Part shown: piece after piece, positions 3,496-43,707 of the stretch | Layout: each line of letters begins with the position of its first letter | How positions within the stretch are numbered: the first letter of the stretch is position 1 | Assembly: GCA_011839185.1 (NCBI GenBank) | Contig: GCA_011839185.1_3918.1 | Origin: a phage | Strand: one strand, 5' to 3' | DNA length: 64,000 nucleotides | Translations under genes and position numbers: made by a program | The notes under the pieces: model-generated | Seen by the model: the letters and a program-made list of their open reading frames with translations, nothing else | What the model was told of the DNA's origin: nothing | The model's database searches: none

Positions 3496-4565
3496 TTAAC
3501 CAACACCCAATCTTTTTAGGTGGTGAGAGAAAGACATTTGACTCACTTAACAAGCACTACCCAAAAATCTTTGAGCTATATAAACAACAAAAAGCGCAAG
3601 ACTGGTCAGAAGATGAGTTCCCTTTTGAACAATCACGTCTTGATTTTGAGAGTGTGCCAGCATCAATGTCAGGTGTAATGCTTGAGATTCTTAAGTGGCA
3701 GTGGGAAGCAGATACCCAAGTTGCTAAGAGTTTAGCGTTTGCTTTTGCACCATTCATCTCTGATGACATTTATGCAACTGCAATTATGAAGCAGTCTGAG
3801 ATTGAAAACTTACATGCTCTGACTTACTCAGAGATTGTAAGGCAATGTATTAAAAACCCTGAAACAATCTTAGATGAGATTAACCAGAACATTGCTGTAC
3901 AAGACCGATTAAAAACTGTGAATCGTGTTCTTGAAGAATTGCTGGATGAAGGTATAAACTATCGACTGAGTTATGTCCGTGACTCACTTCTGGACAAAGA
4001 CCCTTTACACTTCCATAAAGTGATTCTGAAAGGTCTATTTGCAGTGACTGCACTGGAAGGTATATCTTTTATGGCATCCTTTGCATGTACTTTTGCACTT
4101 GATGCTCAAGATAAATTTCAGGGTATTGCTCAAGCTGTTCAGAAAATTATGCTTGATGAAATCCTTCACACTAAAATTGATATTGAAGTTTTAAAAGAAA
4201 CTTTAAGAGACGATGAGTGGCAAAAAGCTTTCCAACAAATTCTTCCAGAGATTAAAGTAATCTTAGATGAAGTAGTTGAAAGCGAAGAAAAATGGTCGTA
4301 TTATATCTTCTCCGAAGGACGTGCTGTAGTTGGTTTAAATACAAAGCTTCTCCATGAGTGGGTTTACTATAATGCTGCCCCACTGTATGATATGTTTGGC
4401 ATTCCCAGAGATTTTGTAGCTCCTAAAGAACCACCTCTGAAGTATATGATTAAGAAGATGGAAATTGATAAAGAGCAGAATGCTAATCAGGAGCAACAGA
4501 ACGGCGCGTATTTATTGAATACTGTTGTAGATGATTTGAATAGTGGATTTTTAGAGGTTCCTTAA
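3492..4565 (+). CDS. nrdB: ribonucleotide reductase class Ia small subunit
   Basis: 357 aa immediately downstream of nrdA; size and helical, acidic composition fit the di-iron R2 subunit. Confidence 0.8.
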   Translation: MINQHPIFLGGERKTFDSLNKHYPKIFELYKQQKAQDWSEDEFPFEQSRLDFESVPASMSGVMLEILKWQWEADTQVAKSLAFAFAPFISDDIYATAIMKQSEIENLHALTYSEIVRQCIKNPETILDEINQNIAVQDRLKTVNRVLEELLDEGINYRLSYVRDSLLDKDPLHFHKVILKGLFAVTALEGISFMASFACTFALDAQDKFQGIAQAVQKIMLDEILHTKIDIEVLKETLRDDEWQKAFQQILPEIKVILDEVVESEEKWSYYIFSEGRAVVGLNTKLLHEWVYYNAAPLYDMFGIPRDFVAPKEPPLKYMIKKMEIDKEQNANQEQQNGAYLLNTVVDDLNSGFLEVP

Positions 4566-7554: not shown

Positions 7555-7946
7555 TTAAGTTAAGCCAAAAACAGTTAGAGTGGATTAAAGATTATGCCTC
7601 AGAGTGTGGCTCTTGTGAAAAGAATCACGTAAGATACTCAACATTCCACACGGTCTTCACATTGTATATTGGCGACAATGTTCTAAGTGATTCTGTAGAA
7701 GATGGTGTAGCATTGCCTAATGAATTGCTTGACAAATTAGCTGTAGTCACTGGAACTTGGTCTGAAGAAGACGGTCATGAACTATCTAACGATGTTGTCT
7801 TCTACAGTCTTGAAAACATCATGAATCCAGAGTACATTATGCTAATGACTTGCGCACAAGATTGTGTACCATTACAAAACTTCATTAAAGAGCACTGTGA
7901 AGAATTTATTACTAAACAGGTTCCTTGTCAGGTGGTGTTTGAATGA
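7551..7946 (+). CDS. hypothetical protein
   Basis: 131 aa; cysteine-containing; overlaps the upstream stop. Confidence 0.45.
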   Translation: MIKLSQKQLEWIKDYASECGSCEKNHVRYSTFHTVFTLYIGDNVLSDSVEDGVALPNELLDKLAVVTGTWSEEDGHELSNDVVFYSLENIMNPEYIMLMTCAQDCVPLQNFIKEHCEEFITKQVPCQVVFE

Positions 7947-8875: not shown

Positions 8876-9196
8876 ATGAGCAAAGTTTATAACACTCGCA
8901 AATTACAGATTTTCGTACTGTGCCAGTTTATGGCTAAAGAATACAACTTCTACTATTGTGGTACAGGTTTTATTAGTGATGATGATGGCTCATACCTTCC
9001 ATTCAAAGAAGCTGTGAAGCTCTTTAATGAAGAGGAAAGCTCTAAGAAAGATATTGAAAAGGTGAAACTGACCTACAGCAAGAAAGATAAGAAGATTATC
9101 TGCCTAGATAACTTTGTAAAAGTTACTGGAAAAGCAAAAGAGCTTATGGATGAGAGTGAGATTCCATTCACAAGCCTCTTGAAAGTAGCTCAGTAA
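8876..9196 (+). CDS. hypothetical protein
   Basis: 106 aa; followed by a terminator. Confidence 0.45.
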   Translation: MSKVYNTRKLQIFVLCQFMAKEYNFYYCGTGFISDDDGSYLPFKEAVKLFNEEESSKKDIEKVKLTYSKKDKKIICLDNFVKVTGKAKELMDESEIPFTSLLKVAQ

Positions 9197-9209
9197 GCAG
9201 ATACTATAA

Positions 9210-9235
9210 GGGAACTGTAAAGGTTCCCTTTTTAT
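9210..9235 (+). terminator. rho-independent terminator
   Basis: GGGAAC...GTTCCC hairpin followed by TTTTTA. Confidence 0.6.
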
Positions 9236-9247
9236 TTTGGAGATAGT

Positions 9248-9763
9248 ATGTACCTGTCAAATCTGAAACGTTCTGCTGCAATGTCAGTGTTAAGACTCAG
9301 TTTTGAGGAACGTCAAGAGTTCATTGACTCCCACCAATACGACCCTTCCAACTCCAATCACATGATTCTCTGGAATCGTGAGAGTACTCGTGAAAGAGCA
9401 TTATTTCGATATTACCCACACTACACCATAGATAATCTGTATGAATGTTTTGTTGTGAAGAACACCATTACAGTACTCAATAAACTTTGCAGATACACAG
9501 GCAGTCAATCCTTCACATTAGGTCATCACAAACCTGTTACAAAAGGTGGTGAACATCACTGTGCAAACTGGTTTATCCAAACTAAAGCTGATAACCAGAA
9601 GCAAGGAGATAGCCTCCTAAGTATCCCTAAGATGACCTATGAAGAGCAAGAGAAATATATCAAAAATAATATGCCAGATGTGCTTGACAACAACTATACA
9701 GATTTGGCAATATCTCTCCTGTTGAAGTTCGAGACAGTTTATAGGGCAACTTATAATGGCTAA
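9248..9763 (+). CDS. HNH-family endonuclease-like protein
   Basis: 171 aa; HHKPVTKGGEHHCANWFIQ...N matches the HNH pattern. Confidence 0.55.
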   Translation: MYLSNLKRSAAMSVLRLSFEERQEFIDSHQYDPSNSNHMILWNRESTRERALFRYYPHYTIDNLYECFVVKNTITVLNKLCRYTGSQSFTLGHHKPVTKGGEHHCANWFIQTKADNQKQGDSLLSIPKMTYEEQEKYIKNNMPDVLDNNYTDLAISLLLKFETVYRATYNG

Positions 9764-10976: not shown

Positions 10977-12758
10977 ATGACTAAATCACTTTATGCAGTA
11001 CCAGCAGGTTTAAACGCAGATGCTTACAAATCTGGTCACATTTACCAGTATCCTAGTGCAACAGAATACTTGATGTTCAACCTAACACCACGTAGTGACA
11101 AATGGTTTAACAGCCCTTTAGCAATTGACGGTGTAGTGGCTTTTGGTATTCAACGTTTTGTTAAAGATTACCTGATAGACCACTGGAACGCCACCTTCTT
11201 TGAACGTGACAAAAAAGAAGCAATTGATGAAATCTTAGAAGTCATGAACGGTGTTCTGGGTAAAGATGCTATTGGTCGAGAGCATTGGGAAGCACTCCAT
11301 GACTTAGGTTATCTACCAGTTGAAGTATACGCTGTAGAAGAAGGCACAGTTGTCCCTATGCGTGTACCAATTATTGTCTTCCAGAACACTGTTTCAGGTT
11401 TCCATTGGGTAGCGGGGTATCTTGAAGATGCTTTCTCTGCTGAGATTTGGAAGGCTTGTACCATTGCAACTATTGCATTGCACTACAAACGTATCTGTAA
11501 GAAGTGGGCTGACCTTACTTGTGACAACGACTTGCATTTACCTTATCAGTGCCATGACTTTGCTATGCGTGGTATGTCCGGCTTTACTGATGACGCATTT
11601 AACGCTGTAGGACACTTAACCAGCTTTAAAGGAACTGATAGTTTCCCTGCTGTGTATACAGCTAAACGCATCTATGGGCAGTCCTACCCAATCTCTGATA
11701 TTGGTAGTTCTGTACCAGCCACTGAACACTCTGTAATGTGTGCAAACATTGCTTGGGAAGGTGGTAATGAATTGATTGAAGAAGAAAGACGCTTCAAAGG
11801 TGAGTTGCAAACCTTCCGTCGCTTCTTAACAGAGACTTACCCGACTGGTATTGCAAGTATTGTTTCAGACACTTATAACTTCTGGAGAACTGTGTCAGAA
11901 ATCTTGCCAGCACTTCGCAAAGAGATTATGGAACGTGACGGTAAACTGGTAATTCGTCCTGACTCTGGAGACCCTGTACATATTGTCACAGGTTATAAAG
12001 CAATCCACTTAGAGTGTGCTAAAAAGGCTTATTATGAACACCTAAGCAAGCTGGAAGCCAGTGACACAATGCTGAATGCTGTTCTGAACATGAAGCTTGA
12101 GAATATCAACTATGGTATTGCTGGATGGCTACTGTCAGAAGGCTATGAAATGGTTGTTGACAGAGAAGACTTTGAAGTTGCTGATACAGTGATGTTGAAA
12201 AATGCTTATATGGTTGGTTCTGCAAACGTTGTAACACGTCCTGTAGCAGAGATTGATGGGGCCATTAAGACCCTGTATAACATCTTTGGAGGAACTATCA
12301 ACTCTAAAGGGTTTAAGGTACTGGATGAGCACATTGGACTTATCTATGGTGACTCTATCACGTTGGAACGTGCAAACGAAATCCTGAAGCGTTTGTATGA
12401 AATGGGTTTTGCAAGTTCTAACGTAGTGTTTGGTGTAGGTTCTTACACTTACCAGTACATGACTCGTGACACCTTTGCATTTGCTGTCAAAGCAACTCTT
12501 GCGAGCATTGGTGGTAAAGAGATTATGCTTGCAAAAGACCCTAAAACAGATAGTGGTATTAAGAAGTCTGCTTTTGGTGGTGTAGCCCCTATGTGGGATG
12601 GTGAGAACCTGAAAGCTGTAGATGGCTATGGATTCCAGAGTTTTGCAGATGCACTTGAACACCCAGCTTGTGCTTTACGTCTAGTCTTTAGCGACTCTGA
12701 GCAGTTCGGCTACACAACTCTTGGCGATATTCGAAATAATATTGACAAGCAGCTTTAA
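10977..12758 (+). CDS. nicotinamide phosphoribosyltransferase-family protein (NAMPT-like)
   Basis: 593 aa; VIRPDSGDP motif typical of NAMPT/NAPRT enzymes; directly downstream of the Prs-like gene. Confidence 0.7.
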   Translation: MTKSLYAVPAGLNADAYKSGHIYQYPSATEYLMFNLTPRSDKWFNSPLAIDGVVAFGIQRFVKDYLIDHWNATFFERDKKEAIDEILEVMNGVLGKDAIGREHWEALHDLGYLPVEVYAVEEGTVVPMRVPIIVFQNTVSGFHWVAGYLEDAFSAEIWKACTIATIALHYKRICKKWADLTCDNDLHLPYQCHDFAMRGMSGFTDDAFNAVGHLTSFKGTDSFPAVYTAKRIYGQSYPISDIGSSVPATEHSVMCANIAWEGGNELIEEERRFKGELQTFRRFLTETYPTGIASIVSDTYNFWRTVSEILPALRKEIMERDGKLVIRPDSGDPVHIVTGYKAIHLECAKKAYYEHLSKLEASDTMLNAVLNMKLENINYGIAGWLLSEGYEMVVDREDFEVADTVMLKNAYMVGSANVVTRPVAEIDGAIKTLYNIFGGTINSKGFKVLDEHIGLIYGDSITLERANEILKRLYEMGFASSNVVFGVGSYTYQYMTRDTFAFAVKATLASIGGKEIMLAKDPKTDSGIKKSAFGGVAPMWDGENLKAVDGYGFQSFADALEHPACALRLVFSDSEQFGYTTLGDIRNNIDKQL

Positions 12759-37431: not shown

Positions 37432-38847
37432 ATGAGCGAATTATTTAAACATGCGCACCTTCATGCAGGTCGAACTGAAAATGGTGCTGTAAACCATACT
37501 TCATCAATGTCTGCTCTTGTAGACTTTTACAAAGCTGCTGGTTCAAGCCGTAGTAACGTAGAAATCTTACCAGACCTGTTCTACAAAGCTTTGCGTGAGG
37601 ATGTTGATGTTGCAGTTCGTATTTTGCTTCATATGCGAGATGTACGAGAAGGTATGGGTGAGCGTAAAGCCTTCAGAACTGTTTTGCTTCAAGCAATTGA
37701 AGATAAAGTTTTAGAGTCTACGCAGGTTCTTCGCATTATGGATAAGATTGCAGAACTTGGTCGTTTTGATGACTTCAAAATCTTCGTAGGTACTCGTTTC
37801 GAGACAGATGCCTTCAAACATTTAGAAGAAGCATTACTAGACCCTGCAACAGCAGGTTTGGCGGCTAAGTGGTTACCACGAGTCAAACCACGTCATAAGC
37901 AGTTTGTAAAACGTTTCTGCAAGTTTGCCAACTTGAGTGAGAAAGAGTACCGCACACTGTTGTCTGCACTATCTGATACAGTTGAGCAAAAAATCTCTGC
38001 TAATGAGTTTGGTAAGATTGACTACAGTAAGATTCCTTCACTTGCTGCTGCACGTTACCAAAAACTGTTTAACCGTAAAGATGGAGAGCGTTACAAAGCT
38101 TACATCGAGTCCTTATCAAAAGGTGAGGCTAAGATTAATGCTGGTGCTGTTTACCCATACGATGTGATTAAATCTGTCAAGCATGGTAATGCAGATGTTG
38201 CTAATGAGCAGTGGAAAGCACTACCAAACTGGATGGCAGAAGGTGAAAACATCTTGTGTATGTCTGATGTATCAAGTTCAATGTCTTGGGTGAATTTTGG
38301 CTCCATTACTGCTCTGGATATTGGTGTATCACTTGCCTTGTATGTAGCAGAACGCAATACAGGTTGCTTTAAGAATGAGTTGATGGTTTATTCAACAAAC
38401 CCTCACTTCATCGAACTGAGTGGTGATTTACGAAACCGTCATCGTCAGGTGATGCGACACGTTGAATATGGCTCAACTAACTTACAAGCAGCTTTTGACC
38501 GCATTCTTGAGACAGGCAAAAGAAACAACTTGACTCAGAAAGATATGCCAAGTAAGCTTATCATCTTCTCCGATATGGAGTTTAATCAGGTTGATGGGGC
38601 TAACGGTCGTACAAACTTTGAAGCAATTCAGAGTAAGTACAAAAAAGCTGGATATGAGATGCCACAACTGGTATTCTGGTACTTAGCAAACCGTAATGGT
38701 ACTTGCGAAGTATCTGTTAAGGATAACGGTGTAGCAATGGTATCAGGGTTCTCTCCAGCCACTTTAAAAGCTCTGCTTGGTGGTGAGAAGTTTGACCCAA
38801 TCAGTGTAATGCTCAAAGCAGTAATGATTGACCGTTATATCTGGTAA
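37432..38847 (+). CDS. vWA-domain protein with helical N-terminal domain (possible Ro60/Rsr-like or DUF2828-like)
   Basis: 471 aa; MIDAS-type DVSSSM at about residue 279 with downstream T and D residues; ~270-aa helical N-terminal region; directly upstream of the tRNA array. Confidence 0.6.
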   Translation: MSELFKHAHLHAGRTENGAVNHTSSMSALVDFYKAAGSSRSNVEILPDLFYKALREDVDVAVRILLHMRDVREGMGERKAFRTVLLQAIEDKVLESTQVLRIMDKIAELGRFDDFKIFVGTRFETDAFKHLEEALLDPATAGLAAKWLPRVKPRHKQFVKRFCKFANLSEKEYRTLLSALSDTVEQKISANEFGKIDYSKIPSLAAARYQKLFNRKDGERYKAYIESLSKGEAKINAGAVYPYDVIKSVKHGNADVANEQWKALPNWMAEGENILCMSDVSSSMSWVNFGSITALDIGVSLALYVAERNTGCFKNELMVYSTNPHFIELSGDLRNRHRQVMRHVEYGSTNLQAAFDRILETGKRNNLTQKDMPSKLIIFSDMEFNQVDGANGRTNFEAIQSKYKKAGYEMPQLVFWYLANRNGTCEVSVKDNGVAMVSGFSPATLKALLGGEKFDPISVMLKAVMIDRYIW

Positions 38848-38865: not shown

Positions 38866-38894
38866 TTGACAATGTGTTTAATACCCTTTAATAT
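38866..38894 (+). promoter_or_regulatory. sigma70-like promoter
   Basis: TTGACA, 17-nt spacer, TAATAT. Confidence 0.5.
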
Positions 38895-38955: not shown

Positions 38956-38985
38956 TTGACAACCACTAAAAAATAATGTTAAAGT
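38956..38985 (+). promoter_or_regulatory. sigma70-like promoter ahead of the tRNA array
   Basis: TTGACA, 18-nt spacer, TAAAGT. Confidence 0.5.
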
Positions 38986-39173: not shown

Positions 39174-39180
39174 GTTTTGA

Positions 39181-39253
39181 CAGAAGACCAATTACAGCAA
39201 ACTTAATCTTATTCATCTGAAGGTAAATCGGACAAAGAAGAGATTTGGTCTGG
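39181..39253 (+). ncRNA. candidate structured element A (hairpin with conserved bulged closing stem)
   Basis: 5' CAGAAGACCAAT ... ATTTGGTCTGG 3'; AT-rich ~48-nt interior; one of four related elements. Confidence 0.35.
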
Positions 39254-39264
39254 TCATTAAGAAT

Positions 39265-39341: not shown

Positions 39342-39347
39342 AATTTA

Positions 39348-39411
39348 CAGAAGACCGTTTACAGCAATATTTATTAAATTTTTAGCGGAAAAATTGAAAG
39401 ATACGGTCTGG
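39348..39411 (+). ncRNA. candidate structured element B
   Basis: 5' CAGAAGACCGTTTACAGCAA ... ACGGTCTGG 3'. Confidence 0.35.
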
Positions 39412-39424
39412 TAATACTAAACAT

Positions 39425-39501
39425 GGTTAGGAAGCACATAAGGTATGTGCGGTCGCCTGTTAAGCGAATGGCACAGGGTTCGAATCCCTGACTAACCGCC
39501 A
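39425..39501 (+). tRNA. tRNA-Asn (anticodon GTT)
   Basis: acceptor GGTTAGG/ACTAACC, D-arm GCACATAAGGTATGTGC, loop CTGTTAA, T-arm CAGGGTTCGAATCCCTG, encoded CCA. Confidence 0.75.
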
Positions 39502-39741: not shown

Positions 39742-39769
39742 ATTTTGAGAGGGCTATTTAGCCCCTCCC

Positions 39770-39797
39770 TTAAAGGGTTCTTACGAGTATCCTTTAA
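39770..39797 (+). promoter_or_regulatory. conserved hairpin with GTTCTTACGAG loop (copy 1 of 4)
   Basis: TTAAAGG-GTTCTTACGAGTAT-CCTTTAA. Confidence 0.4.
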
Positions 39798-39802
39798 AGG
39801 AG

Positions 39803-39876
39803 CAGAAGACCAAATACAGCAAGTTACTTAAAATTTCAAGCCAATTTAATTTTGAAAAATTTAAAACTTGGTCTGG
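39803..39876 (+). ncRNA. candidate structured element C
   Basis: 5' CAGAAGACCAAATACAGCAA ... CTTGGTCTGG 3'. Confidence 0.35.
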
Positions 39877-39889
39877 CTCAACAAATTTA

Positions 39890-40020
39890 CAGAAGACCGT
39901 TTACAGCAAAACTTAAACAATCTATTTCTCGGTAAAGAAAAGGCGAAGGTTCGATTCCTTCACTCGGCAGATGTCGAGTTGGTGTAATGGTAGCACTTAA
40001 GATGATAAACAACGGTCTGG
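39890..40020 (+). ncRNA. candidate structured ncRNA D: closing stem as A-C, enclosing a permuted tRNA-like module
   Basis: CAGAAGACCGTT ... AACGGTCTGG; inside in order: T-arm GAAGGTTCGATTCCTTC, 7-bp acceptor-like hairpin ACTCGGC-AGAT-GTCGAGT, D-arm GTGTAATGGTAGCAC. Confidence 0.45.
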
Positions 40021-40021
40021 T

Positions 40022-40165
40022 AATTATCTTTGTAGATAAGTTATTAAGCTTACCTGTGAGTATGCGACCACAAAGGGTGAAAGGGTAAATTCTAGATTTA
40101 AACCTAAAAAGGCACATCGCTACAGACCTTAAGCAAGTCTGGGTAGCTTATCTACAAAGATAATT
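40022..40165 (+). repeat. long inverted repeat (19-bp perfect arms) enclosing about 106 nt
   Basis: AATTATCTTTGTAGATAAG (40022-40040) and its exact reverse complement (40147-40165). Confidence 0.6.
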
Positions 40166-40169
40166 TAAT

Positions 40170-40245
40170 GGAAGTGTAGCAGAATGGTGATGCGGCAGAC
40201 TTTTAATCTGACAGGCGATGGGTTCGAATCCCTCCACTTCTACCA
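40170..40245 (+). tRNA. tRNA-Lys (anticodon TTT)
   Basis: acceptor GGAAGTG/CACTTCT, loop CTTTTAA, T-loop TTCGAAT, encoded CCA; T-stem imperfect in my parse. Confidence 0.65.
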
Positions 40246-40323
40246 AATTCACCCTTAACTGAGAAACACCTGCGCGGCTGGAAACACCCACTCAACAGTT
40301 TCTCTAACTAGGGTACTTATTCT

Positions 40324-40416: not shown

Positions 40417-40902
40417 ATGTTTTGTGCTAATAAAGATTGTGACAACAAAGCCGTTAAAGGTGGAAAGTATTGTTCACGCTCTTGTGCTGCAAGGGTAAAC
40501 AACAAGAGTCATCCAAAAAGAAGACAAGAAGGCTCTTGTCATTCATGTGGAAAGCAGACACCAAAATCAAGAAAGTATTGTGATGAATGTATTTCAAATG
40601 GTATTCTGAAACAATACAAAAACCCCGATGAAGAAAAGAAAGCGAAGTCACAACACGTTAAAAAGTCTCGTGACAAACTTAAGAGGGTTTTAGTTGATTA
40701 CAAAGGTGGTTGTTGCTCAATTTGTGGATACAATAAGTGCATAAAGGCTTTAGAGTTTCACCACTTAGACCCTAATACAAAGGACTTCACAGTAGGACAA
40801 AAACACTTCTCTATAGAGGTAATGAAGTCTGAAGTTGATAAGTGTGTATTACTGTGTGCAAATTGCCACAGAGAGGTACACGAAGGGGTAACAAAGCTGT
40901 GA
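40417..40902 (+). CDS. HNH homing-endonuclease-like protein with N-terminal zinc ribbons (start trimmed past the tRNA)
   Basis: C-terminal EFHHLDP...LLCANCHREVH HNH motif; several CxxC pairs; ORF-track start 40345 lies inside the tRNA. Confidence 0.65.
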   Translation: MFCANKDCDNKAVKGGKYCSRSCAARVNNKSHPKRRQEGSCHSCGKQTPKSRKYCDECISNGILKQYKNPDEEKKAKSQHVKKSRDKLKRVLVDYKGGCCSICGYNKCIKALEFHHLDPNTKDFTVGQKHFSIEVMKSEVDKCVLLCANCHREVHEGVTKL

Positions 40903-40971: not shown

Positions 40972-40986
40972 ATTTCAATAAAGTTG

Positions 40987-41015
40987 TTGACATTGAGATG
41001 TGACTACTTTATAGT
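40987..41015 (+). promoter_or_regulatory. sigma70-like promoter inside the tRNA array
   Basis: TTGACA, 17-nt spacer, TATAGT. Confidence 0.55.
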
Positions 41016-41182
41016 AACCTTAGTTTTCGTTGCGTAGCGTCTATTTTGCAAATTTAAAATAAATGCAAACGACAATGTTTTTCTGGCAGTAGCTTGATAG
41101 GCTAAACACCAGTGAGGTCTTCCAATCCCTCATCAAAGAATTTGGCGTACTCGCCCACGGTATGATTAATAAGGTGGGCATC

Positions 41183-41210
41183 TTTAAGGGCTTTCTAAGA
41201 GAGTCTTTAA
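41183..41210 (+). promoter_or_regulatory. conserved hairpin-motif variant (copy 2 of 4)
   Basis: GGCTTTCTAAGAGAGTCTTTAAAG, about 10 nt upstream of tRNA-Arg. Confidence 0.3.
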
Positions 41211-41218
41211 AGATTAAT

Positions 41219-41437: not shown

Positions 41438-41520
41438 ATGGGACGATGTTAAGACTCTAAGGCATGAGCAACGGCTTCCAACACCGTTTCAAAGGGGTTC
41501 AACTCCTCCGTCCCATGCCA
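41438..41520 (+). tRNA. atypical tRNA-like gene, anticodon CCA (Trp-type), about 7 extra nt between acceptor and D-arm
   Basis: 3' two-thirds parse canonically (arm ACGGC-TTCCAAC-ACCGT, T-loop TTCAACT, acceptor GTCCCAT, CCA) but the complementary 5' acceptor sits 7 nt too far upstream. Confidence 0.3.
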
Positions 41521-41533
41521 AAGTCTTATTAGG

Positions 41534-41621: not shown

Positions 41622-41843
41622 CCTAATAAGATTTAAAGCCAAGCTTCATTCGGATGTTGCTTTGGTATCCCTCGTGTATTGTCGTACACACTGATAAAGC
41701 ACCTAGTAGGTGTCACGGAGAAGAGATAATATCAAGCTCTCCAAAGGTTCTAGTCACCGGATTAAACAAGACTATGCAAAGACCTATTTAGGTCTTTTTA
41801 GAGGGCTTCTAAGGTTATTACAGCTTGTTGTGGAACCTTGTTG

Positions 41844-41868
41844 CTTAGGTTCTTAGAAGTTCTCTAAA
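41844..41868 (+). promoter_or_regulatory. conserved hairpin-motif variant (copy 3 of 4)
   Basis: TTAGGTTCTTAGAAGTTCTCTAA, about 10 nt upstream of a tRNA. Confidence 0.3.
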
Positions 41869-41878
41869 AAGATTTAAT

Positions 41879-42876: not shown

Positions 42877-43430
42877 GATACTTAAAATATGTTTCATGGA
42901 TTTTCTTAGCTTTGTTAGAACCATTTGCAGCAACCCTAGCAGTCATCTTAGCACCTTTCGTAGTTCCATTCTACAGTGAGAAGAAAGGGCATCTACCTTT
43001 TGGATTCAGATGGATGGAGACCTATGACAACCCTATTGATGGTGACAAAGGCCACGTTGAGAGATGGGCTAAGATTAGAAAGATTGGTAAGCTTGGTGTC
43101 TACATGCAGAGAGTTGGATGGCTCTGGAGAAACAAAGCTTATAACTTCTCTTACCATGTATTAGGAAGAGATGTAAAAGACGTTACTAAGTGGAAAGGTA
43201 ATATCAACGTAAGTTCTAACCCTGAAGATAATCAAACAGGTTATCTCCTAATGTGGAATAGCAATGCTTGGGGATTATTTGCTTTTATCCCATCAATTAA
43301 AGTCTTTGGTAAACAGTTTTACTGGAGAATTTATATTGGATGGAAACTAAAAAGTGTTGTCCCAGAAGAAAGAGCATTCTCAAGGGAAAGAGTTATGTTG
43401 GCATTCTTTATTCATCCACTGAGAAAGTAA
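42873..43430 (+). CDS. hypothetical protein with N-terminal hydrophobic segment
   Basis: 185 aa; Trp/aromatic-rich; start overlaps the upstream stop. Confidence 0.5.
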   Translation: MRYLKYVSWIFLALLEPFAATLAVILAPFVVPFYSEKKGHLPFGFRWMETYDNPIDGDKGHVERWAKIRKIGKLGVYMQRVGWLWRNKAYNFSYHVLGRDVKDVTKWKGNINVSSNPEDNQTGYLLMWNSNAWGLFAFIPSIKVFGKQFYWRIYIGWKLKSVVPEERAFSRERVMLAFFIHPLRK

Positions 43431-43680: not shown

Positions 43681-43704
43681 TAAGGGTTCTTACGAGAGTC
43701 CTTA
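43681..43704 (+). promoter_or_regulatory. conserved hairpin with GTTCTTACGAG loop (copy 4 of 4)
   Basis: TAAGG-GTTCTTACGAGAGT-CCTTA just upstream of tRNA-His. Confidence 0.4.
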
Positions 43705-43707
43705 AAT

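Follow-up and report, generated by a model that had tools for sequence, protein, structure and literature searches.

A long inverted repeat in the tRNA array of a Felixounavirus is probably the closing helix of a conserved structured RNA

Why does a phage carry a perfect 19-bp inverted repeat directly in front of a tRNA gene? The question is raised by a 64-kb stretch of phage DNA (assembly GCA_011839185.1, contig GCA_011839185.1_3918.1; here referred to as the window) from a Felixounavirus, a Felix-O1-type myovirus, with 26 tRNA genes that are all located on the + strand. Within the tRNA array, positions 40022-40040 (AATTATCTTTGTAGATAAG) return as their exact reverse complement at 40147-40165 with a spacing of 106 nt. 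The segment bounded by the two arms is here named the inverted repeat (IR) element. Based on our analysis we are highly confident that the repeat is the closing helix (P1) of a conserved structured non-coding RNA (ncRNA). The more complete reading, in which the helix closes a conserved ncRNA domain of ~144 nt that is excised as a discrete RNA from the array transcript, is given a probability of roughly 0.6. We consider the repeat to be P1 of a new structured RNA because the helix is kept by compensatory changes, the enclosed domain is conserved, the + strand folds better and neither an Rfam family nor an open reading frame (ORF) nor further copies were found. We rate the IR element as an undescribed RNA family within a phage locus of the Ro60/Y-RNA type.

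The inverted repeat and its helix

The original prediction had described a perfect 19-bp inverted repeat at 40022-40040 and 40147-40165, and this was borne out by the sequence and by a repeat finder, which lengthened the arms to 22 nt at 95%. RNA folding gave a P1 of 24 bp, including G.U pairs, between the 5' strand (40022-40045) and the 3' strand (40142-40165), each of which contains one of the perfect arms on the + strand. The 19-mer was unique to these two places of the window with up to 3 mismatches allowed, and two matches were obtained in none of 100 shuffled sequences. The 150-nt stretch with the IR element folded at -47.1 kcal/mol (z = -6.4 compared with shuffles). Further inward, the formerly suggested pairing of AAGCTTACC with GGGTAGCTT is not the one that comparison supports; the conserved inward extension of P1 is GUUAU(U)/(G)GUAGC, and GGGUAG is alternatively able to close a local hairpin.

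The 3' strand of P1 ends 4 nt upstream of tRNA-Lys(UUU) (40170-40245, + strand), the invariant downstream neighbor of the element. The stem is followed by TAAT (UAAU in the RNA) and then by the tRNA, without a T-run, as stated in the original prediction, and it is not a terminator. An intrinsic terminator was rejected also for the A+U-rich stem and because the scan found no terminator on the + strand.

No known RNA class accounted for the segment. In Rfam nothing overlapped 40022-40165 at E <= 10. A permuted tmRNA was rejected, as ARAGORN and Rfam were both negative at the IR element and the weak tmRNA match of this array lies elsewhere. A hammerhead-like core was dismissed since CUGUGAG is not CUGANGA, and a 6S-like rod was ruled out by the multi-branched interior. 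A retron was rejected as well: no reverse transcriptase gene was noticed in the ORFs and annotations examined, among which no search aimed at this gene was made.

Conservation of the helix across phage lineages

This part of the array was matched by 288 phage records. The interval from tRNA-Asp to tRNA-Lys (430 nt) was ~98% identical across the records examined and contained no annotated RNA gene; two short hypothetical-protein coding sequences are present in ULIM8.

Mooglevirus, Suspvirus and one Felixounavirus (BPSELC-1) carry arms of the form ...UCUUUGCAGUGAC / GUUACUGCAAAGA... in place of ...UCUUUGUAGAUAAG / CUUAUCUACAAAGA..., and the pairing is retained. Within these close genera four pairs of P1 and one pair of the interior hairpin P4 were altered on both sides. 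An alignment of 11 sequences from the three close genera had standard pairs in 347/347 cells; after the 3' partner had been slid by 1-3 columns only 25-48% were paired, and the covariation score was reached by 0/500 shuffles.

More distant arrays were available from Yersinia phage P778 (L090) and from four metagenomic contigs, with a neighboring protein of 53-63% identity. Each of the five carried a long-stem element directly 5' of tRNA-Lys(UUU), and the closing helix is unrelated in sequence, e.g. AGUUUUAUUUGAAGUG.../...CACUUCAAAUAGAAUU in P778; the P1 sequences of P778 and of loci L092 to L094 are unrelated to that of the window. A covariance model (here named R1) which was built from the close genera alone recovered all five distant arrays.

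Over the nine lineages the closing helix ranged from 22 to 30 bp in size (9/9), and in some of them P1 contained 1x1 or 2x2 internal loops 10-12 bp above its base. Since MAFFT loses the register of the P1 strands across distant lineages, an ordinal, bulge-stripped comparison was made from the minimum free energy fold of each sequence. The median identity of the 5' strand was 36%, and double changes were present at 20 of 22 ordinal positions, where all positions are paired by construction, so that these values describe sequence turnover with retained pairing and are not an independent test of pairing. The number of G.U pairs per element was 4-9, and the + strand folded better than the - strand in 8/9 lineages, with totals of -456.6 and -407.4 kcal/mol, respectively. 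Due to the G.U pairs and the better folding of the + strand we assign the RNA to the tRNA strand and exclude a palindrome at the DNA level.

These data also bear on an origin outside of RNA. A short segment flanked by a perfect 19-bp inverted repeat might be a small mobile element with terminal inverted repeats, or a DNA-level palindrome that serves as protein-binding site or cruciform, but this is extremely improbable. The element is a single copy in the window and occupies the same site in all lineages, and a search of 5,426 complete E. coli genomes gave no match; the compensatory changes of its arms include strand-specific G.U pairs, which are not tolerated by DNA pairing. The remnant of a mobile insertion, one of the candidates originally put forward, is rejected on the same grounds. 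A miniature inverted-repeat transposable element was likewise rejected, as there were no dispersed copies, no empty-site variant and no sequence conservation of the arms, and the sole absence is due to a recombination deletion in Salmonella phage FG1m (L097; see below).

A small protein encoded by the region is practically negligible as an explanation. ORFs of 33 aa (+) and 76 aa (-) are present in the window, and the 33-codon ORF is annotated in one record. However, no frame is open across the lineages, a stop-free stretch of 86 aa in the window is reduced to 23-59 aa elsewhere, and the substitution pattern is that of a paired RNA.

The interior of the IR element

In the window fold P1 encloses a junction of three hairpins named P2, P3 and P4, all on the + strand. 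P2 (40050-40080; window fold and nine-lineage alignment) carries the core GAGUAUGC at 40058-40065, of which G40058, G40060 and U40061 are invariant in the nine lineages. The conserved core GRGUAKGC (GRGU invariant) falls in different local hairpins depending on the lineage, and no common P2 fold was derived.

P3 (40082-40105, GGGU-AAAUU-CUA-GAUUU-AA-ACCU) has a core, AUUCUAGAUU, which is invariant in Felixouna-, Moogle- and Suspvirus, and an outer stem that differs in sequence yet pairs. In P778, L093 and L094 a GYG-UAACGUU-CRC hairpin takes the place of P3. To read UUCUAGA of P3 as a T-loop was rejected, since it is not conserved in L091, P778 and L093.

The terminal hairpin P4 (40123-40141, CAGAC-CUUAAGCAA-GUCUG) abuts the 3' strand of P1. 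Its loop pattern C.U...CAAG is invariant in the nine lineages, and its stem covaries and stays paired. The interior thus represents a conserved RNA domain (invariant core, P4 loop and covarying P4 stem), from which we conclude that the stem is more than a plain hairpin.

Position relative to tRNA-Lys and element D

The gap between the 3' end of P1 and tRNA-Lys(UUU) was 0-10 nt in 9/9 lineages, despite the gain of a tRNA-Ala and the loss or relocation of element D. This adjacency is the most constant feature of the nine lineages in spite of array rearrangement. Host anticodon nucleases classically target tRNA-Lys(UUU), and the IR element could be a cis-acting 5' leader of pre-tRNA-Lys(UUU) which controls or protects the maturation of this tRNA. 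We regard this as quite unlikely. A conserved order can be historical, most tRNAs of the array lie just a few nt apart, and inspection by eye revealed no complementarity of the conserved loops to the tRNA, although no systematic search for it was made.

On its 5' side the IR element abuts element D (39887-40023, + strand; UUAC-AGA-AGACCGUU-UACAGCAA ... AACGGUCU-G-GUAA), with an overlap of 2 nt (40022-40023). Neither of the two is annotated, their conservation within the genus is ~98%, and they might together form one RNA of ~280 nt in which the IR stem extends element D. The distribution in the distant arrays renders this improbable. At L091 the IR element and a further spacer element, C, are present and D is absent, and a tRNA-Ala intervenes between the IR element and the D-type element of L093 and L094. 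Downstream of tRNA-Lys, a D-type element was found in L092 and a second one in L093. The copy of P778, situated between tRNA-Asp and tRNA-Ala, is reduced to V and T arms. Furthermore, the outer helix of D cannot form together with the first two pairs of P1. In the original prediction the repeat was also considered as an extended stem within a larger ncRNA that runs on from D: the closing stem of an ncRNA was retained, and the continuity was not, since the RNA is separable from D in L091, L093 and L094.

Transcription, processing and other long stems

Two sigma-70-type promoter-like sites (38866-38894 and 38956-38985, + strand; consensus matches only) lie upstream of the first tRNA. Between them and 40022 no promoter or terminator match was found on the + strand except for a weak one (9/12) at 39344. 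The array transcript would start at these sites (38866, 38956). Cleavage by RNase P at tRNA-Lys would leave the helix with a 3' tail of 0-10 nt and set the 3' end of the element; the 5' side may be freed by a cut at the junction with element D or by RNase III within the helix of 22-30 bp. The long terminal helix could then protect the excised RNA against exonucleases, similar to the role of the terminal stem in a Y RNA. We put an involvement of RNase III at slightly less than an even chance.

Two further promoter observations were made. A near-consensus sigma-70 promoter-like site is present within the array at 40987-41015, after tRNA-Ile (TTGACA, 17 nt, TATAGT; 11/12), and locus L015 has three such sites upstream of its array.

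Long stems are not restricted to the IR element. A paralogous stem with arms of 26 nt (85%) spans 41788-41877 (+ strand) and ends just before tRNA-Leu(UAG); its outer sequence UCUUUuuAG.../...CUaaAAAGAU resembles P1, and its counterpart is L091 8907-8994. The hairpin AUCUUUAAGGGCUUUCU/AGAGAGUCUUUAAAGAU (41180-41214, + strand) ends 4 nt before tRNA-Arg(UCU) and has the same type of outer sequence, so that UCUUU..AG/CU..AAAGAU is common to all three. In addition, the flanks 41521-41533 and 41622-41634 are complementary and lengthen the acceptor stem of tRNA-Ser(UGA), and relatives carry equivalent stems or flanks around tRNA-Leu, -Ser, -Asn and -His. This pattern is consistent with what would be expected of double-strand processing stalks in a long precursor of stable RNAs. 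In the most distant array of this type, L015, long-stem elements were found at 7648-7748 and 11092-11206; homology with the IR element is not established. The second of these, a 26-bp stem around a pyrimidine-rich loop of 63 nt, lies between tRNA-Ser and tRNA-Ile of a distant Ounavirinae-like contig.

An RNase III substrate, another candidate of the original prediction, would be compatible with the length of the helix and with the similar stems of the array, but the enclosed conserved domain makes the stem more than a cleavage site. The helix may be nothing but an RNase III stalk dividing the upstream Y-like RNAs from tRNA-Lys, with the enclosed 100 nt as functionless spacer. It has at least 22 bp in every lineage, in agreement with the approximately two turns (20 bp or more) of an RNase III substrate, paralogous stems with this type of outer sequence are found before tRNA-Leu and tRNA-Arg, and tRNA-Ser, -Asn and -His lie between complementary flanks. 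RNase III takes part in the processing of T4 tRNA precursors. We nevertheless consider a mere stalk to be unlikely. The invariant interior nucleotides and the covarying terminal hairpin persist while the P1 sequences have turned over completely, and the paralogous stems enclose just 1-38 nt, which argues that an insert of 100 nt is not needed for a stalk. Compared with known RNase III stalks (stems of rRNA operons, sites in the T7 early RNA), the IR element shares a helix of at least two turns flanking a structured RNA in a polycistronic stable-RNA transcript; it differs by the internal loops (1x1 or 2x2) of several lineages, and cleavage is here only predicted.

The Ro60-like protein heading the array

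The array is headed by a gene (37432-38847, + strand) whose product matches Pfam DUF2828 and DUF7788 and is not TROVE-annotated. It combines a ring of HEAT repeats with a vWA domain containing the MIDAS-type motif DVSSSM. In sequence and profile searches against PDB sequences no match was obtained, and Ro60 was seen only by fold comparison: with the AlphaFold model (pLDDT 87) the ten best PDB fold matches were all Ro60 (E 6e-9 to 4e-7), first that of Thermus phage phiLo, followed by Xenopus and human. As judged from this predicted model, the protein is Ro60-like by fold. The ortholog Bas63 gp130 has been reported to be Ro60-like and to counteract the ppl defence, and the authors only guessed that some of the tRNA genes of Bas63 might be Y RNAs (PMC11482910).

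The protein is annotated as 'RNA-binding protein', 'vWFA protein' or 'DUF2828', and its relatives head tRNA arrays in many distant phages (L015, L017, L018, L022, L023, L025, L032, L037, L039, L040, L043 and L044). A tmRNA gene is present in some of the loci with relatives of the Ro-like gene. DUF2828 occurs in eukaryotes and viruses.

Partner-type RNAs in the spacers

The spacers of the array contain four paralogous elements, A to D, of the pattern NNNC-AGA-AGACC-NNN-UACAGCAA ... NNN-GGUCU-G-GNNN, i.e. a stem strand, (U)UACAGCAA, a variable module, the second stem strand and G. Both flanking helices covary between the copies. Members of this family were also seen in L015 and L090 to L094. Elements A (39178-39256; UGAC-AGA-AGACCAA-UUACAGCAA ... 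UUGGUCU-G-GUCA), B (39345-39414; UUAC-AGA-AGACCGU-UUACAGCAA ... ACGGUCU-G-GUAA) and C (39800-39879; GAGC-AGA-AGACCAA-AUACAGCAA ... UUGGUCU-G-GCUC) are all located on the + strand.

Element D is a tRNA mimic of the YrlA type, of which each phage has one partner-type member. V (39925-39940), T arm (39945-39961, UUCGAUU), acceptor hairpin (39962-39979) and D arm (39982-39996, AAUGGUA) follow the published order V-T-AS-D (AS, acceptor stem; PMC4201824), so that the complete layout of YrlA is present: 5' stem, V, T arm, closed acceptor stem-loop, D arm and 3' stem. The acceptor hairpin has six unrelated sequences across the phages, all of which pair. Element D did not reach the gathering score of Rfam RF02553, and a search of 431 nt gave no match at E <= 10.

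The same design was found beside a Ro-like protein of only 33% identity in mycobacteriophage Faith1 (L096). Here, the non-coding gap 3' of the Ro-like gene holds three RNAs (within 3946-4210) of the form GGACNNN-UA(A)CAGCAA ... NNNGUCC-AG, of which the middle one has V, T, AS and D arms and is aligned by the Rfam YrlA model with a sub-threshold score of 21.7 bits. A scan of 81 Ro-like loci for a stem strand, 0-4 nt, CAGCAA, a module and the second stem strand gave 146 matches on the coding strand, while the opposite strand gave 48 and shuffled sequences 35. Matches to the CAGCAA design were present in 66/81 loci, often at most ~300 nt from the gene end. Because the design recurs in Faith1 and is enriched on the coding strand, elements A to D are, as far as sequence comparison can tell, the probable cognate Y-like RNAs of the DUF2828-type Ro-like protein family. 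As a separate observation, two further CAGCAA/TACAGCAA motifs at 42928 and 44117 lie in later spacers near inverted repeats (42903-43144) and may mark additional partner-type elements.

Is the IR element a partner RNA?

The IR element shares several features with the bacterial and phage Y RNAs (YrlA, YrlB, Yrn1; Rfam RF02553), the partners of Ro60/Rsr. It begins ~1.2 kb downstream of the Ro60-fold gene on the same (+) strand, i.e. within the ~4 kb and on the strand expected of a Y RNA relative to a Ro60 ortholog. A long helix of its 5' and 3' ends (24 bp in the window) surrounds a variable structured module, and it sits among elements A to D, one of which has the order of YrlA (PMC4201824).

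On the other hand, its 5' strand contains neither the bacterial (GNCGAAN0-1G) nor the animal (GGUCCGA) Ro60-binding motif. GGTCCGA was absent from the whole array, and the sole match to GNCGAAN0-1G (39942-39949) lies at the V/T junction of element D and is not conserved in FelixO1 and Si3. No T-loop or D-loop motif and no Rfam match to YrlA or tRNA was found at 40046-40141. Moreover, the adjacent protein is of the DUF2828 type, and outside of Ounavirinae-type phages the element was not found beside it.

The released RNA might, speculatively, work with the Ro60-like protein via P4 or P1. P4 (AGAC-C-UUAAGCAA-GUCU-GG) is akin to the minimal signature of the partner RNAs, AGACC-NNN-UACAGCAA ... 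GGUCU-G-G, which is a resemblance and not a demonstrated relationship. We regard a direct partnership of the IR element RNA with the Ro-like protein as possible but doubtful.

Still less probable is a joint reading of the whole locus, which we offer as speculation. The IR element RNA would be a new partner or effector of a Ro60-like anti-defence protein of the Bas63 gp130 type, with the recognition signature (a stem and the ...AGCAA loop of P4) on a side arm, and the helix of 22-30 bp would have a second function in nuclease recruitment or as decoy. The stem-UACAGCAA-module-stem RNAs would be the true cognates of DUF2828-type Ro-like proteins from mycobacteriophage to enterobacterial phage, with the Class I RNAs of Dictyostelium maybe as eukaryotic members.

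These Class I RNAs have a terminal stem with an 11-nt motif (CCUUACAGCAA) beside its 5' strand and end in C-UGU, the rest being variable; they are reported to be unique to Dictyostelia and to be bound by an RRM protein, with no known link to Ro60 (PMC7919456). Elements A to D, not the IR element, agree with them (RF01414) in the short terminal stem, UUACAGCAA 3' of the 5' stem strand, the variable remainder and a C-UG(U/G) end. RF01414 aligned end-to-end to element C (39808-39875, 15.3 bits) and to two Faith1 RNAs (L096 4011-4057 and 4144-4205; 18.9 and 14.3 bits), but all of its scores on phage RNAs are far below the 41.5-bit threshold. Judged by these alignments, Class I RNAs may be linked to DUF2828/Ro-like proteins.

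The closest contextual analogues of the IR element are rnaC and rnaD (species 1 and 2) of phage T4 (L095), stable non-tRNA genes of 119-139 nt in a phage tRNA cluster with still unknown function (PMC3014915). The IR element is likewise a non-tRNA RNA within a phage tRNA cluster. By architecture, however, rnaC is tRNA-like with insertions, unlike the IR element. Model R1 had no match at the annotated rnaC and rnaD, and the matches elsewhere in the T4 locus were weak (<=14.3 bits, E >= 0.04). T4 is not known to have a Ro-like gene. Folding of rnaC (L095 1409-1547, minus strand) gave an acceptor-like terminal stem, a T arm (CCGGG-UUCGAAU-CCCGG) and two long hairpins.

Natural deletion in FG1m and evidence to the contrary

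A comparison of related phages for presence or absence of the segment, as proposed originally, showed that the element keeps its site in all lineages, and the one exception is no clean case of absence. FG1m is the only phage found without the IR element. It has a deletion of 744 bp that arose by recombination between identical GGGTTCGAATCCCT segments of tRNA-Asn (39476-39489) and tRNA-Lys (40220-40233). The endpoints are thus identical 14-nt T-arm segments, with the junction at L097 1937-1963. tRNA-Tyr, tRNA-Asp, elements C and D, the IR element and most of tRNA-Lys were lost, and a chimeric tRNA (annotated as tRNA-Asn) remains.

FG1m is also one of several points that weigh against a functional RNA domain as proposed here and against its link to the Ro-like protein. 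Since this phage is a viable isolate without the whole segment, the region is dispensable for propagation. When model R1 was applied to 80 viral loci, only the five Felix-type loci were matched and none of 75 more distant loci with a Ro-like gene; the IR element is therefore not an obligatory partner of this protein family. The pairing of P2 is inconsistent between the lineages, and because of this variation there is better support for its sequence motif than for its precise fold. P4 carries AGCAA, UGCAA or AACAA, whereas CAGCAA is invariant in the partner RNAs, and its loop may be no more than a 3-bp extension with a tetraloop. Finally, a keyword search of the literature, whose top results were mostly unrelated, returned no end-mapping or transcriptome paper on Felix-type phages that covers the region.

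Significance of the array

Annotations of phage tRNA arrays usually show tRNAs and nothing in the spacers between them. The spacers of the present array are full of structured RNAs that are conserved, and we provide candidates with coordinates, structures and covariation: four partner-type RNAs, including one tRNA mimic, and the long-stem RNA before tRNA-Lys. Which RNA a phage Ro60 protein works with thereby becomes directly testable in a tractable phage of E. coli or Salmonella. The partner-RNA design is common to mycobacteriophages and widespread in metagenomic phages.

Additional features of the array

The spacer 3' of tRNA-Lys contains another conserved structured element (40246-40323) with the core CUGCGCGGCUGGAAACACCCACUCAACAGUU and a counterpart at L090 8901-8982. 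Its closing stem is ACCCU/AGGGU in the window and GCCUCU/AGAGGC in P778.

An ORF for an HNH endonuclease (40417-40895) lies between tRNA-Met and tRNA-Ile, reaches the start of the latter and is missing from this position in several relatives. In the following spacer between tRNA-Ile and tRNA-Arg (40982-41218), Rfam gave a weak match to tmRNA (15.9 bits, E 0.003) and to permuted tmRNA (20.3 bits); ARAGORN calls none.

An unannotated tRNA-like sequence without ARAGORN call is located at 41438-41520 (AUGGGAC ... a stem-loop with the loop CUUCCAA ... GGGGUUCAACUCCUCC-GUCCCAUG-CCA), and a similar one was found in P778 (L090, within 9141-9517).

The hairpin AAGGGUUCUUACGAG..CCUU is present twice, in the region 39747-39802 after tRNA-Asp and at 43682-43707 before tRNA-His. 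Its first copy, together with a preceding GGGCU-AUUU-AGCCC hairpin, is conserved in Moogle- and Suspvirus.

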